Shown here piece after piece: positions 21,339 to 43,175 of a DNA stretch of 64,000 bases. The notes below the pieces were generated by a model that did not search any database, was not told where the DNA came from, and saw only the letters and a program-made list of their open reading frames with translations. A program made the position numbers and the translations under genes. Positions within the stretch are counted from its first letter, which is position 1. The number at the start of each line of letters is the position of its first letter. Origin of the DNA: Nitrosopumilaceae archaeon (lineage in GTDB: Archaea; Thermoproteota; Nitrososphaeria; Nitrososphaerales; Nitrosopumilaceae); NCBI GenBank assembly GCA_965209085.1, contig OZ242376.1, forward strand, positions 1,600,001 to 1,664,000, in the 5' to 3' direction.

Positions 21339-22921
21339 GTAACTGTCTAGAGTTTTGAAGCGATTTGATCATATGATCGAGTATTTTCTATCGTGATCTT
21401 TATGGATCAAGCACAAACATGACGAATTGTTGTCAGAACGTGACCAAAATAACCTCAATCCTGGATTACTCCACAAGGTATTGCAGGAAAATGCACGGTT
21501 ACGACGTATCGACAAACAACAGAAAAAAGAGAACACACATGAAAATCAAATATTCCACACTTGAAGTAAAGTATTCCATACTTGAAAAAAAAATCTGCAG
21601 TTCAACAAAAAGAAATAGATGATCTAAAATTCGCTATAAAGGAACTTGTCGCAAAGAATATCCGTGCAAAACCCAACATTTCCAAAACTCTTACAGAAAG
21701 AAAATACTCTGATCATACAAGAACCAGCAGAAAAAAACCCGTCAGAATCGACAATAAAACAAATGTGGATCAAAAGATGTGCAGCGGATGTGGAAACGAG
21801 CTCTCAAAAATCATCGACAAATACACCCGTACGGTGGAGGATATTATTCCAGCAAAGACATACAATACAGAATATACGATATACAGAAGATATTGCAAAC
21901 ACTGTAAAAAGACAATCACACCAAAAATACACACCGCACTTCCAAACAGCAGGTTTGGGATCAGATTGGGAGTGTTTATCGTCTCACTCAAATTATTGGG
22001 AATTTCATATGTAAAAATATCACGACTGGTAAATACAATAGACTTCATGCATAATAGGCCAAATTCACAATTTTTACGAATAAAAATGACTGATTTTAAT
22101 GATTATGCATGAGGTCTAATGTATTCGATACACGTGACACCTTCCACCATAAACCACGTGATAACAAAAATGGCGACAGCGTTTGGTTCGCTGTACGAGC
22201 AGATGATAAAGGAATTAAACCAAGAATTAAACATACACGGAGATGAGACCAGCTGGCGGATTGATGGCATCAACCACTGGTTGTGGGTGTTTGTTGGAAA
22301 ATGGACCATCATATATGAAATTGACAAATCACGTGGCCGCGAGGTACCAAAAAAAATATTAAAAGAATACAAGGGAAACGTTACAAGCGATTCATGGCCA
22401 GCATGGAATTATGCTGGTAAAACACATCAGCGTTGCCATGTTCACTATAAAAGAGAGATCCTGGGTACAATAGATCATAAAAACCCCGGCAAAGAGTTTG
22501 AACCATTTGCAAAACGTCTGCAAAAAATACTCTACGACTCACAGAATGCTGCAAAGATACAAAGCAAGATCAAGAGGCTTAAAATCAAGAAAAATCTAGA
22601 GGTAAGAATTGACAGACTGATCTCAAAGCCGTACAAGGAGAAAAACTGTATCAGATTTGTAAAAAGAATCAGGCGAGAAAAAGATATGCTCTTTACGTTT
22701 CTAAAAACGGGTACTGACTGACACAACAATACCGCCGAGAGGGGGATTCGACCAAATGTCGTAATACGCAAAATTACAAATGGTCACCGCTCAGAGGATG
22801 GTGCCAAAGCTCACAGGATATTGATGAGCATAAAGGAGACATGCAGGTTGAGGAATCTGAACTTTCATGATTATTTGGAAGAATATCTATCCAATTTAAC
22901 TTCAAAACTCTAGACAGTTAC
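21339..22921 (+). mobile_element. IS66-family element A, transposase pseudogenised
   Basis: Perfect 22-bp IRs GTAACTGTCTAGAGTTTTGAAG; CxxC finger, HGDETSW, SDSW, QRCHVH, NNTAERGIR; frameshift near 21590, MITE insertion, TGA at 22719. Confidence 0.92.
22040..22117 (+). mobile_element. 78-bp family-1 MITE inserted in the IS66 transposase
   Basis: TIRs AGACTTCATGCATAAT / ATTATGCATGAGGTCT, AAT target duplication; removal restores LVNTMYSIH. Confidence 0.9.
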
Positions 22922-23090
22922 AAAATTTCTTGTGAACGTCCATTCCAACAAACATATCCTTCCCAGAATATCGGGTAATCTGTTTGTTTACATTTGGATC
23001 TTTTTTAGATGATTTACGTCTCGGCAATACGGATCGTTTGACATTCTTACAACCATCTGTGGTCTTAGAAGCTCTCTTCACATATGGTTA
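22922..23090 (-). mobile_element. Left end and N-terminus of an IS110/IS1111 element, cut off by IS66-A
   Basis: Hand translation 23027->22922: LPRRKSSKKDPNVNKQITRYSGKDMFVGMDVHKKF (first DEDD motif); end TA-ACCAT-ATGTGAA. Confidence 0.8.
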
Positions 23091-23160
23091 TGCATAATGG
23101 GTCAAATTCACAATTTTTACGAATAAAAATGACCGATTTGAACGATTATGCATACGGTCT
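23089..23160 (+). mobile_element. Family-1 MITE whose left TIR is interrupted by the IS110/IS1111 end
   Basis: TATGCATAATGGGTCAAATTCACAATTTTTACGAATAAAAATGAC...ATTATGCATACGGTCT. Confidence 0.85.
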
Positions 23161-23161
23161 A

Positions 23162-24436
23162 TTATATCCGATATGAAGACGTATGTCCATAGTCATTAAA
23201 TTTTTTGAAATCATCTTCACCTAACATTCCATTTTGATCAAATATGGATGACTCTTCGTCATACTTGTAAGCGCCCAATATTTTACTTGTAAAATATTTG
23301 ACAATTTTCATGATCTCTACATTTGTTAATTCCAATACGTTGCAGATTTGCTCACTGTAAACATCATTATAATCACATTTGTTAGAATCCTCTCTCATCC
23401 ATGATCGTTTTGAAGCGCGCAAAATTTTTCCATTACTCTTCAAATCACTTAAAGTCATATCTATAGATCTTTTGATCGCGATCCCGAAAGTAATGCTGTC
23501 TTCATATTTGATATATTTGTAATAATCTCTACAAATTATGACGAATGATAATAACGACATAGTCGTACTCTGCAAACTAAGATACAATTTATTATTTTCA
23601 ATGTTTAAGAGAGGATTTGTAACTGCTTGAATTACGGATCCGTTATCATAATGTTGGAGATAATCTGATTGTTTCGCATATTTGGAATAATATCTTATAA
23701 AATCTATATTTGATTCTTGTTCTCTTTTATATAATATTATTAAATTATTTTGAATTTTTATTTCTTTACCATCAGCTAAACTTTTAAAAAATTTTTTACT
23801 ATCATCCGAAAATAACTTCAAATTTTGCTGTGGCTGCACTATGAAATATGTGCATGGATATAGTATAGTATGCAATGCACGAGATGCCACATCTTGTATG
23901 ATGTTATCATTACTGTGTAACATGACATCAAGTTTTTTCAAATCTTGATGATTTCCAAACATACTTGAATCCGTACCATTAAATCCATATTTTTTTTGTA
24001 ATTGATCTTCTAATTTTATATCGTTCATTTTACCCGATAAATTAAATGACATACATTTATTCTTGATTCTTTCAACTAGATCTTTAACGTCTTTTGATGA
24101 ATTTATATCAAATTTATTCGCCTGAATCTTACTCAAAAGCCCTTTTGGGGTTGAATTATCTAATCTAATCGGAAGTATTGGCATTTTGTTTCGATCTGCC
24201 ATCCCTGCCTCTTGATTAGCATATGGAGAATTATTATAATTCTCTGTAATCAGAGCTAAAAACAATTTTGACGTTATTAAATTATTCTTTATTATGTCTG
24301 ACCAATTTTCACCACTTTGGATGTTCCGTTGTGCCACGAATGTATTTATGCCATATTTATTAAGCGCGGTGGCTATTTTTGTTACAATGGCATAATCGGC
24401 ACTTGCATAACTTATGAAAATTTTTATATCATTCAA
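23162..24436 (-). CDS. TIR-domain protein
   Basis: IFISYASAD...GENWSDII...SPYANQEAG...ILPIR; very AT-rich; uncharacterised C-terminal region. Confidence 0.85.
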   Translation of the reverse strand: MNDIKIFISYASADYAIVTKIATALNKYGINTFVAQRNIQSGENWSDIIKNNLITSKLFLALITENYNNSPYANQEAGMADRNKMPILPIRLDNSTPKGLLSKIQANKFDINSSKDVKDLVERIKNKCMSFNLSGKMNDIKLEDQLQKKYGFNGTDSSMFGNHQDLKKLDVMLHSNDNIIQDVASRALHTILYPCTYFIVQPQQNLKLFSDDSKKFFKSLADGKEIKIQNNLIILYKREQESNIDFIRYYSKYAKQSDYLQHYDNGSVIQAVTNPLLNIENNKLYLSLQSTTMSLLSFVIICRDYYKYIKYEDSITFGIAIKRSIDMTLSDLKSNGKILRASKRSWMREDSNKCDYNDVYSEQICNVLELTNVEIMKIVKYFTSKILGAYKYDEESSIFDQNGMLGEDDFKKFNDYGHTSSYRI

Positions 24437-24446
24437 TAGTCTGTGT

Positions 24447-25800
24447 GTATGAGGTCAGCTATTAAACGATACTGAACACATCTTCAAAGACGATTTTATC
24501 ATGTGATCTCCATGTCAAAACGCACGTTAGAAAGTTTGACATTCTTCTCATGGATTCAGATCCTCTGATCAGTCCGCTTATCTTACGCCAAACCATGACA
24601 TCCCGTAATGCACGCTCGGCTACATTGTTTGTAGGTGTGATGTTTTCATGCTCTATAAAGGCAAGCAGATTCATCGTCGCATTCTCCAACCGTTTGATCA
24701 AACTTTGCATTTTGGACATTTCTGTACTGCGGTATTTATCTAACATGACATCAAGTGTGTATTCAAACGCATGTCGTACACTTGCACCACCGTGGATATT
24801 ATTTTTAGCGTCGTTGAACAGTATGCATAGATTCTCGTAGAGTCTCGGATGTGTACCGCCATGTTTTACCGCCATGTGTTTAACAATCCACAGCTCGTGT
24901 ACCCAGCACCGTTGATACATTCCTCCAGGATCAAATCTCTTGTATGCAAGATATCCGTCAGTTACTGCAAAACCATCAAATTTGTCCATATATGCGTCCA
25001 TAACATGCGCACCACATCTCTTCATGATTATCGTAATATTTTTCTCGTATGCGATTGTCCACGCCCAAACCATCAATCCATTCAGTATGTACGAGATCTC
25101 ATCAATATTGACAAACTGTGATTGCATAACCGTGTTTGTTATTGTTTTTGCCTCCGTTTCCATTAGATCCGAGACATTTGAGATCATGTTGATTATAGTG
25201 GATTTGACAATGACTAGACCGCATGTTGCTTTGAGCAGTTCTTGTATCGCATCATGCGTGATTTTCACTGCTCTGTATTGGAGAACTAGGCAATCCCATT
25301 TTTAACATACGAGTCAGATTTTGACAGATCGTTTTCTGCCTTGTGGACATGTTTACAGTTTGAGCATACGTGTGCGTCGATCATATGTTTGATCTCTGTT
25401 GCAACTGCTGGTATGTAATCAATAATGTCACGCGTTTTTGTATACGAGTATTCCATGGTACTGTCACAGCTGCATTTGGTATTTTTCATGATGTGCTTTA
25501 CAGTATTGGTTAGATTGTATTTACGTGATACTCCCTTGTGACCTAGACTGCCATCTGGTTTTTTGTGGCGGTAATTCGCCATTTTCTCTTGCCTTACGTA
25601 TTTTGCGTTTTTCTTGCATGTATTCAAGTGAACGTAAAGAGGTTGGTGTGTTTGAATTTTCATAATATACGAGTCAAGTTTTGAGGGTTTTAATTTCCCC
25701 CATCCTTTGTGTCCAATCTATGCGTAAATTCTGTCATTTGTTTATTCGTCTTTTCGACAAAAACTCTCAGTCTTCCAATTTGCGATATGTTGGACATCAT
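24447..25800 (-). mobile_element. IS66-family element B, frameshifted transposase
   Basis: ORFs 25663-25286 and 25268-24462: GHKG, CxxC, IDE, VTDGY, QRCWVH, TNNVAERALR; terminal GTATGAGGTCA at 24447; other end not found. Confidence 0.85.
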
Positions 25801-40069: not shown

Positions 40070-40146
40070 AGACCATATGTATGATTGGCCAAATTCACAA
40101 TTTTTACAAATAAAATGACTGATTTGAACGATTATGCATACGGTGT
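40070..40146 (+). mobile_element. Family-1 MITE copy
   Basis: AGACCATATGTATGATTGGCCAAATTCACAATTTTTAC...ATTATGCATACGGTGT. Confidence 0.85.
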
Positions 40147-41159: not shown

Positions 41160-41367
41160 AAGATGGGCTATTCACAGGCATTGTAGAGTTTCTGAGTGTG
41201 AAAATACATGTATGCACTATAGATCCGTGAACTAGAGTTGGCCGTAATTCACGTAAAATTGTATACAAACTATGGCCTGTCATATATCTAATAATTTGCC
41301 TTGAATGTTTGAACTTTTGTAACCGTCTAAAGTTTCAAAGTTGTATGCATATTTGATCAAACACAAT

Positions 41368-42555
41368 AGACCTCATACATAATTAACCAAAAAATCAATT
41401 TTGGCAAATCGAAAGATCTATGATCTAGTATCAGGTGCGCATAGCATATGCCAATCAGACAAACGCATGATCTCTAAACTGAAAAAGACGATCTTAAAGA
41501 TGGGAAAGAAGAGTTCCATGCAGGAAAAAAGAATTTCCAATCAAAAAGAAAGAATTTCCAAGCTGGAAGCAAAGAATCAACGCTACAAAAAAACGACTCT
41601 GAGCATCAATGATGACAAAAGACAGCATGTCGACAAATATTTGAACAAGGGAATTGGGAATGATGTTCATCCATATGAAATGACAGGAATGAACCGTGAA
41701 GAATTTGAATGGATTCTAGAACGGTTCTGAAAAACCGTGGAAGATTCGTCAGAGACTTCCCGCTTTTCAGAATATGTGGACAATCCTGAAAACATCTATA
41801 TCCTTACCGTAAAGCAAGTTTTGTTTATCGTAGTGCCGCAAACGCAATAATCTCAAACCGGGAGCACTTGCGTTCATTGCAAACGTTGATCAGAGCACCA
41901 TTAGCAGATATCTGACCTTTTCTGATGAGCAGTTGATGGATGTTCTTCCAACGGCTAAGAATATTGGTGCTGCAATACGGACAATACGTACAAGCGAGTT
42001 GTTTAAAAAATTCGTACCTGGCAGGGGCGGCGGCGAGATGTATCTTGATGCCACGTTTGTACAGGTTCAAAGGCCGCAGGAGAATCCAGAGGCAGTATAC
42101 TCTGGAAAACGCAAGAGGCACGTCTACAGCGTACCGATAGCCTCCAACAAAGATGGAGTGGTAAATGACATTGGCGGTCCAGAAGAGGGCTCAGTACACG
42201 ACATGGAGGTACTGCGGCGTAATCTGCCAAATTTTGGCAAATGGACCGATGGTATGAAAAATCCGGACACGAAAAAAGAGCGCCAAATTATGCTATATAC
42301 TGACAAGGGATATCTGTCCGTGGAAAAAGACTATCCTGGAATTATCTCAAAACAACCGTACAAAAAACCAAAGGGCAGGGGATTGACAGAGGCAGAACGC
42401 GAATACAGCAAGAGGATCAGTCGTAAGCGCATAAAAATAGAGCATGCCATAAACTGACTCAAATGGTTCCGTAGAATGAGTGCTGTATATGATGATACAA
42501 TGGATGCGTTTTATACAGAAATCCAAGTGGTTACAGGACTGACCAATCTGCACAT
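41368..42555 (+). mobile_element. Second IS5-like copy, 3' end deleted
   Basis: Near-identical to the 27147 copy; TIR AGACCTCATACATAAT after AAT; similarity stops at CTGCACAT. Confidence 0.9.
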
Positions 42556-42714
42556 GTCCAATTTGCATCAGAGAGTAACATTTCTGAATTTTACCGGCGT
42601 CTTGCAAAAAAGAGAGGATCATCCAAGGCCAAAGTTGCAGCAGCGGCCAAGATGCTTGATGTCATATTTGGTATGCTAAAGGATAGGAGTGAATTTGAAA
42701 TACATCATAGTTAA
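42553..42714 (+). pseudogene. C-terminus of IS110/IS1111 recombinase
   Basis: Hand translation HVQFASESNISEFYRRLAKKRGSSKAKVAAAAKMLDVIFGMLKDRSEFEIHHS*, typical IS110 C-terminal pattern. Confidence 0.8.
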
Positions 42715-42921
42715 AGCAACAAACCGCGGGTTAGACTTTGGAGATGTTACCCCGGTTGCATAACTGCGGTAAGCTTTAACATGTGGATAAAGATGGTTGT
42801 GGGATTAAATCCCGAATGGATAGATGTCTTTTCATCTTTTGGTTGGAAACAGACACATGGCGAAAGCCATACCGCATGACACAAAAAAGCAAGAAACCTT
42901 TAAAAAATATTCACATGAATA
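42715..42921 (+). ncRNA. IS1111-type non-coding right end, candidate bridge/seek RNA
   Basis: Stem-loops holding target- and donor-matching segments, GAAA tetraloop hairpin 42857-42870, sub-terminal TTCACAT-GAA-TA. Confidence 0.68.
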
Positions 42922-43175
42922 TGGTCTAATCATCATATTCTAGATGTGGAACTTTGGACAGATGTGAATTTTTTTTTGAATTGTATCTTGTAGGTGTCAC
43001 TTGCAGTTTTCAATATTTTCCAATATGTGCTGCAAATGATTTCCGCATAAAGTACAAACAGCATTGAAGAATATTTTCTAGTTTATCATATGAGAAAACG
43101 TTTTCTGTAAAAATACATGTGGAAAAAATCTAGCAGACAGCGTCTGCTGGTATGTTGAAAAATGAGATAAGTTTA

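Follow-up and report, generated by a model that had tools for sequence, protein, structure and literature searches.

An IS1111-type element of an archaeon that inserts at a fixed TA in the terminal inverted repeats of IS5-type elements and MITEs and carries a candidate guide RNA

Among described insertion sequences, IS4321 and IS5075 offer the closest precedent for an element that lodges in the ends of other transposons, and Partridge and Hall 2003 is reportedly the paper to name alongside them. Nearly 900 insertions of these elements in the inverted repeats that transposons of the Tn21 family carry are counted in Siddiquee et al. 2024 (PMC11187229), which presents them as DEDD-type insertion sequences with sub-terminal inverted repeats (IRs), a fixed position and orientation within the terminal inverted repeat (TIR) of the other transposon, and a 3′ non-coding region that determines a guide RNA. 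A MITE as landing site is known from IS1111 itself, the founding member of the group: PMC5896051 places 20 of its 21 copies in Coxiella burnetii within QMITE2, at a GTAG palindrome inside the MITE. The guides of the experimentally studied systems, namely the seekRNAs of ISEc11, ISKpn4, ISPst6 and ISPa11 and the bridge RNA of IS621, are described in the literature as two-part RNAs with short matches to both target strands and to the IS ends. For ISPa11, ISPpu9/10 and IS621, an abundant short genomic repeat (REP) serves as a safe multi-copy landing site.

The element described here, which we call ISa, shares with IS4321/IS5075 the DEDD transposase, the sub-terminal IRs, the fixed position and orientation in other transposons' TIRs and, as a candidate feature, a 3′ non-coding region that would determine a guide RNA, but its host is archaeal and its targets are IS5-type insertion sequences and MITEs, not Tn3-family transposons. 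Like IS1111 it uses a MITE as landing site, and the idea of MITEs as landing pads is thus not new; unlike the palindrome inside QMITE2, however, its target is a TIR that the MITE shares with autonomous insertion sequences, and its host is not a bacterium. The candidate ISa guide is read from sequence, unlike the experimentally studied seekRNAs and bridge RNA. The IS621 bridge RNA lies 5′ of its gene, whereas the structured, guide-bearing region of ISa lies downstream, and the ISa core is TA. ISa also resembles ISPa11, ISPpu9/10 and IS621 in exploiting an abundant repeat, but REPs are not the termini of mobile elements, whereas the repeat used by ISa is the functional end of other transposable elements. 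Keyword searches of the open-access literature, which are not proof of absence, did not turn up any archaeal IS110/IS1111-type element described from IS5/MITE TIRs. By its anatomy, ISa is a new archaeal IS1111-type member of the IS110 family, well documented by sequence and with behaviour already known from bacteria, and it leaves the current picture of the IS110/IS1111 family unchanged.

Family, anatomy and copies of ISa

We analysed a window, a stretch of 64,000 nt (G000:C1:1600001-1664000), within a genome that consists of a single contig of 1.69 Mb (G000) and that rRNA models assign to an archaeon. A preliminary description drawn from the window had proposed that an IS1111-type element of an archaeon inserts at one fixed TA inside the TIRs of IS5-like elements and MITEs, and the rRNA models agree with it on the host. 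From TA to TA, ISa measures 1337 bp. It encodes a 331-aa transposase of the DEDD type (P0001), in which Pfam recognizes an N-terminal DEDD/RuvC-like domain (PF01548, 98.1 bits) and a C-terminal domain (PF02371, 77.3 bits), and which scores 219 bits against a cut-off of 140 with NF033542, the NCBIfam model for IS110-family RNA-guided transposases. The GL-P----S(T)G motif of the IS1111 group reads GLAPSVRNSA in this protein.

The ends of the element read TAACCAT-ATGTGAA ... TTCACAT-GGA-TA, with a sub-terminal IR of 7 bp and extensions of 7 bp on the left and 3 bp on the right, which is the geometry of the IS1111 type. Such IRs usually span 11-13 bp according to PMC11187229, and PMC11208160 gives a range of 7-17 bp. 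A non-coding region of 207 nt follows the transposase stop, while the 135 nt before the ATG form an open frame; the longer non-coding region thus lies downstream of the gene. Both domains, the NF033542 match, the repeat with its 7/3-bp extensions and the downstream non-coding region bear out the family and type given in the preliminary description. The assignment to the IS1111 type is made by anatomy; by sequence, ISa is far from IS4321, with 20% identity over 280 aa to the R751 transposase (E 2e-10), and at this identity and with its different TIR target it falls outside the IS4321/IS5075 subgroup. Comparison with the PDB aligned only residues 206-326, in the C-terminal domain, to IS621 (E 5.6e-6) and ISCro4 (2e-8), and the nearest plasmid-borne relatives are haloarchaeal, at about 36%.

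With a full copy as query, BLAST finds 22 pieces of ISa in the genome, which we grouped into 19 loci; seven of these are uninterrupted and full-length. The transposase ORF is intact in two copies (G000 156313-157649 and 693557-694893), which are 99.7% identical.

The two ISa pieces in the window are separate truncated copies on opposite strands (Table 1), and the preliminary description was right to treat them as fragments of the same IS, since BLAST matches both to one full copy. The right-end fragment holds the last ~50 transposase codons, the stop at 42713-42715 and the whole 3′ non-coding region. On its other side it is joined to a truncated IS5-type element, whose matches occupy genome rows 1641366-1641433 and 1641542-1642555; this fusion is no simple insertion junction.

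Table 1. Coordinates of ISa pieces, host elements and candidate guide units in the window
Feature	Position	Strand	Remarks
Complete MITE with CA for TA in both TIRs, without ISa	22040-22117		
IS66-family ORF	22119-22721	+	PF03050; element end cuts the ISa fragment at 22922
ISa left-end fragment (IS positions 1-168)	22923-23090	-	BLAST 95.8% identity to full copy
Shared TA of the left-end ISa fragment	23089-23090		
MITE split by ISa	23089-23160		97% identity to MITE query from position 7
3-bp flank of split MITE	23161-23163		ATT
Intact MITE (reference TIR)	40070-40146		Begins AGACCATATG; MITE-query row 1640070-1640144
Truncated IS5-type element, fused to ISa position 968	41366-42555	-	TIR variant AGACCTCATACATAAT at 41370
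ISa right-end fragment (IS positions 968-1337)	42551-42921	+	BLAST 96.2% identity to full copy
Candidate target-binding loop (unit 1)	42724-42769	+	Stem CCGCGG/CTGCGG, hairpin between sides
Candidate donor-binding loop (unit 2)	42786-42835	+	Hairpin 42801-42813
Outer 6 bp of targeted TIR and host 3-bp duplication	42922-42930	+	TGGTCT and AAT

Further features of the window adjoin these pieces. Next to the MITE that ISa has split lies a 424-aa ORF (23162-24436, minus strand) whose N-terminus carries a TIR_2 (Toll/interleukin-receptor-type) domain. IS66-family transposase fragments flank this ORF on both sides, on opposite strands (22119-22721, plus; 24462-25268, minus), and it could represent a defence-type gene within a patch rich in insertion sequences. 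The IS5-type transposase next to the right-end fragment contains an in-frame TGA at 42455-42457 (..AIN*LKWF..), where the intact copy L045 has R (..AINRLKWF..). The same TGA context occurs beside an ISa fragment at G000 ~670.4 kb, and the change appears to be a nonsense mutation passed on within a single IS5 sub-lineage.

A fixed TA within a shared terminal repeat

The target of ISa is a TIR of 16 bp, AGAnnn-TA-TGCATAAT, which is common to a 78-bp MITE and to IS5-type elements and in which the crossover TA lies 6 bp in from the outer end. The MITE matches 47 loci, some of them degenerate, and eight carry ISa. One IS with this TIR, 1357 bp long and with a subfamily of about 1.40 kb, encodes a 384-aa ORF with PF13359, PF01609 and PF13613, and a second IS of 1475 bp also carries PF01609; the label IS5-type rests on PF13359/PF01609 matches above cut-off, the best NCBIfam models being those of IS5 at scores below cut-off. 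The MITE and both types of IS make 3-bp duplications of the ANT type.

In the window, the minus strand at 23077-23098 reads ATTATGCA-TA-ACCAT-ATGTGAA and the plus strand at 42910-42930 reads TTCACAT-GAA-TA-TGGTCT-AAT, with the right arm of the IR at 42910-42916 and the TA at 42920-42921. Both junctions are present where the preliminary description had placed them, and the target site that it rebuilt from them does match the TIR at 40070, as reverse-complementing the final 10 bases of this site gives AGACCATATG. The MITE split at 23 kb keeps the inner part of the split TIR and the whole of its other end (ATTATGCATACGGTCT).

Across the genome, the left-end 14-mer of ISa has 12 exact occurrences, compared to none for a reversed control pattern; two additional one-mismatch matches, which have unrelated flanks and continuations and are missing from the BLAST list, were discarded as chance. 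ATGCA precedes 11 of the 12 left ends, within ATTATGCA in nine cases and AATATGCA in two, and the lone exception, at G000 683416, has an unrelated flank that is not a TIR. By host, eight left junctions lie in MITEs, three in IS5-type ends (two different ends) and one outside any TIR. On the opposite side, the sequence that comes after the right end is NN[G/C]T[C/T][T/C] and A[A/T]T in 16 of 17 cases, corresponding to the outer 6 bp of the TIR plus the 3-bp target duplication, and the remaining flank is one base short. The right end itself reads GGATA or near it in 16 copies, the GAATA of the window copy being a degenerate variant. All TIR-linked copies share one orientation, with the left end toward the inside of the host element, and only the TA is shared, with no further target duplication. 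This junction pattern is far beyond chance. The genome-wide tabulation of flanks that the preliminary description had called for thus finds TIR halves beside the other copies, at one fixed TA and in hosts of both kinds it had named. It is reasonable to expect that splitting of the TIR disables the host element.

Unoccupied sites remain abundant: one regular expression finds 36 unoccupied copies of the target site, and a census of recognisable element ends, with classes defined by regular expressions, counts 41 TA-core and 43 CA-core ends that are unoccupied (43/84 CA) and 11 that are occupied. The CA-core ends include a young IS5-type subfamily of six copies, with 99.1-100% identity.

The order of events follows from the split itself: ISa has the 6 outer bp of the TIR and the host duplication on its right and the remainder of the host on its left, and must therefore have entered a resident element. 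In four of the six MITE-hosted copies with both junctions, the MITE and ISa together are flanked by the same triplet, with mismatches in c677 and c686. Among the 17 right ends there are 16 distinct outer flanks; the one duplicate pair, the right-end fragments at G000 728.5 kb and 959.4 kb, shares a flank and counts as one event. We also compared contigs of four public runs (X1-X4) with one intact ISa copy (L015:1282-2699; G000 156303-157720). A contig of run X4, with a depth of 4.4 and 36 letters on its shorter side, skips exactly 1416 bases, with 3 ambiguous letters; because this length is the sum of the MITE (78), ISa (1335) and the duplication (3), the X4 site is empty of MITE and ISa together, and the locus therefore cannot separate insertion of the MITE from insertion of ISa. 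The contig weakly suggests a related population in which the combined site is empty.

Some ISa copies show local peculiarities. Insertion also goes in the other direction, into ISa: copy c558 contains an IS5-type copy of the CA-core subfamily (1.40 kb; G000 559667-561068), and copy c677 an 89-bp element (G000 675998-676086) whose inverted ends resemble an IS630-type terminus. Two inverted copies that lie 3 kb apart, c683 (G000 682080-683415) and c686 (G000 686398-687732), have identical frameshifts, and one holds the only non-TIR left flank, the other the only off-register right flank, an arrangement that points to local rearrangement. We considered an inversion involving c683 and c686 as the source of the non-TIR left flank and rejected it by reasoning, because an inversion would only swap left flanks between both copies.

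A candidate guide RNA in ISa and its relatives

The 3′ region of ISa contains two stem/internal-loop/hairpin units resembling those of bridge RNAs and seekRNAs, and a candidate guide RNA in this region is probably what directs the element to the TIR. On the 5′ side of unit 1, GUUAGACUUU is the complement of AAAGTCTAAC, and the 3′ side reads GGCUGCAUAA; in unit 2, the 5′ side AUGGUUGU complements AACCAT and the 3′ side GAAUGGAUAGAUG contains ATGGATA. The window copy has corresponding matches: within unit 1, GTTAGACTTT (42730-42739) complements the ...GTCTAA of the outer TIR and GGTTGCATAA (42754-42763) matches TGCATAA at the left junction in the same sense, and within unit 2, ATGGTTGT (42793-42800) complements the IS left end AACCAT and GAATGGATAGATG (42814-42826) is a same-sense match to ATGGATA, the right end of the IS. 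By these matches, therefore, unit 1 fits the TIR on either side of its TA, and unit 2 fits the abutted IS ends. In both arrangement and position the region follows its group, with the top-strand complement located 5′ of the bottom-strand match; PMC11187229 gives the same order and the same 3′ location for IS1111-type seekRNAs, and PMC11208160 predicts a downstream bridge RNA in 93% of IS1111 elements.

The fit of the 5′ target loop of ISa is partial. It matches real right flanks only over GTCTA(A), that is, five to six contiguous bases, in a best register shifted by about 2 nt relative to that of ISb (below), and its best fit, AAAGTCTAA, is a variant found at two unoccupied ends only. When single-sequence folds were compared with shuffles, the window copy had a z-score of -0.54 and the intact copy one of -1.59, neither of them significant; the case for the RNA is therefore a comparative one, built on the relatives. 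An Rfam scan of the full ISa copy with E up to 1 returned no bridge RNA family and only a chance microRNA match (E 0.13). Automatic searching for the stem/internal-loop/hairpin motif was too noisy, and alignment columns were used instead.

Relatives were sought in 101 genomes of the same family, of which 24, G000 included, gave a match. An alignment of 15 3′ regions, which excluded L041 and L028 (both without the anchor motif), keeps the two-unit architecture; L042, the same IS as L020, was dropped before counting. RNAalifold run on 13 sequences, with L017 excluded, identifies four helices that contain compensatory pairs. In six elements, the 3′ side of unit 1 is identical over 7-8 letters to the left flank followed by TAA. 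The 5′ side of unit 1 complements the right junction over 6-10 letters in 7 of the 13 elements scored and over 2-5 letters in the other six, ISa among them. We then set the summed longest cognate matches between loops and flanks in 12 elements, which are related and not independent, against 20,000 permutations using flanks only (L026 was excluded on the right side, where L017 is without a junction): none reached the observed sum on the right and one did on the left, with mean matches of 5.9 versus 3.6 and 5.75 versus 3.45. Left-guide matches are weak in 5 of the 12 relatives, extending at most 3 bases beyond TAA. In unit 2, a G/A position of the donor loop changes together with the right end (ATGGATA/ATAGATA) in all relatives that are readable at both places.

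Built-in comparisons are provided by ISb, which has the same ends and another target, and by a relative in a sister genome, which uses another position in the same repeat. ISb is a second IS1111-type element of the same genome, with 60% aa identity to ISa; its four copies (G000 666533-668874, 730168-733620, 855.4-857.8 kb and, in L079, 1171.1-1173.5 kb) all have an in-frame stop and always occupy the terminal TA of an element that NF033545, above cut-off, assigns to the IS630 family. It has the same ends as ISa, apart from an IR changed on both arms (ATGTGCC/GGCACAT), and a near-identical unit 2, but a different unit 1, whose 5′ side complements the right junction of ISb at 10/10 positions. 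The four left flanks of ISb differ from one another and match its left guide poorly; given the 10/10 match of the right guide, one half-site may be enough for this element. The sister genome (G019, same genus) contains a 59%-identical IS, with 11 left ends among 30 loci examined, and all nine right ends found for it are followed by T(G/A)CATA-N2-3-(G/A)TCT-A(A/T)T. This is the outer stretch of 14 bp in the TIR family that ISa targets, which places its insertion point at the inner TA, 6 bp further in. The 3′ side of its unit 1, GTCAATAA, is equal to its own left junction. A relative in another genus (G001) sits between ...ACGCA and TA-CGGTCTAAT, and its loop reads ACGCATAA.

Conserved sequence was also observed outside the two units. 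The motif CAGATGGT.. is conserved about 25-100 nt inside the left end (L015-L028) and repeats the 5′ side of the donor loop, and a second motif, GCAAACAAACAGATTA, occurs in the same region, in relatives of 44-62% protein identity; both lie in the open frame upstream of the ATG. At the other end, 12 of 12 relatives read (L015-L025) have an A/T-rich, TATA-like octamer (e.g. CTTTAAAAA, TTTATAAAG) that precedes the right sub-terminal repeat by 6-8 nt, at 42893-42905 in the window. In an archaeal host this octamer could act as an outward or junction promoter, a reading based on the consensus and position of the archaeal TATA box.

Proposed mechanism and alternatives

We consider it very probable that ISa is an IS1111-type element inserting in one orientation at the TA of the TIR under the guidance of a bridge RNA or seekRNA from its 3′ region. 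From the family, anatomy, site and orientation specificity, sequence matches and covariation observed above, we infer the RNA itself, a circle, strand exchange and lost mobility of the split host. The 3′ non-coding region would yield an RNA with two internal loops, the first of which would pair with the top strand of the outer TIR (...GTCTAA) and with the bottom strand of TGCA-TA, and the second likewise with the abutted IS ends (ATGGA-TA-ACCAT) of the excised circle. The transposase would then exchange strands at the shared TA. Insertion leaves the TIR's outer 6 bp to the right of the IS and the remainder of the host to the left. In IS621, target and donor cores must match. A search of the assembly for the circle junction, that is, for abutted ISa ends, gave 0 matches.

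The TIR might instead be recognised by the transposase protein itself, the matches in the 3′ region being coincidental or serving some other role. Such recognition would sit comfortably with the weak fold z-scores, with the imperfect right guide of ISa and with the poor left matches of several relatives, but we judge it improbable: the loops change with the flanks while protein and ends stay similar, both between ISa and ISb and across the 12 elements, and the donor loop covaries with the IS end. RNA dependence has, moreover, been demonstrated experimentally for the family, according to PMC11187229. Nor do we find it at all likely that the association of ISa with the TIR arose once or a few times, with segmental duplication or mobile host elements carrying ISa accounting for its later spread, a scenario to which we give even less weight than to recognition by protein. 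Duplication did produce the paired fragments at 728.5 kb and 959.4 kb, c683 and c686 share identical frameshifts, and the X4 site lacks MITE and ISa together; against this, insertions are found in both MITE ends and in two different IS5-type ends, with at least five outer hexamers, the outer flanks are otherwise all different, and relatives in other genomes behave alike. A host with a split TIR would also be an unlikely substrate for its own transposase.

The order of insertion could in principle be the reverse, with MITEs and IS5-type elements inserting beside ISa ends, and the IS5-type copy inside c558 and the small TIR element inside c677 are points in its favour. We nevertheless accord this order next to no chance, as it is contradicted by the split TIR and by the host's 3-bp duplication outside both parts, an arrangement that only insertion of ISa into a pre-existing TIR gives.

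RNA-guided insertion of ISa, if correct, would make it a natural multi-copy archaeal example in which target, donor ends and candidate guide loops can all be read in one genome, convenient for testing the rules of guiding (the core TA, tolerated mismatches near the core) in an archaeal orthologue, and for asking whether transposons restrain each other by splitting ends. A broader interpretation, which we regard as rather unlikely, is that several IS1111-type lineages of the genus live on the termini of transposable elements with re-programmed loops, and that CA ends are escape variants in a transposon arms race. Its basis is that ISa uses the outer TA, the relative in G019 the inner TA, and ISb the terminal TA of an IS630-family element; if true, CA ends would escape ISa, and the arms race would be fought through guide RNAs.

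Elsewhere in the genome, outside the window, long arrays with a period of about 1.1 kb appear as regularly spaced identical 26-mers at G000 ~586.8-629.4 kb, ~1022-1031 kb and ~1492-1501 kb, and are probably very large repetitive genes.
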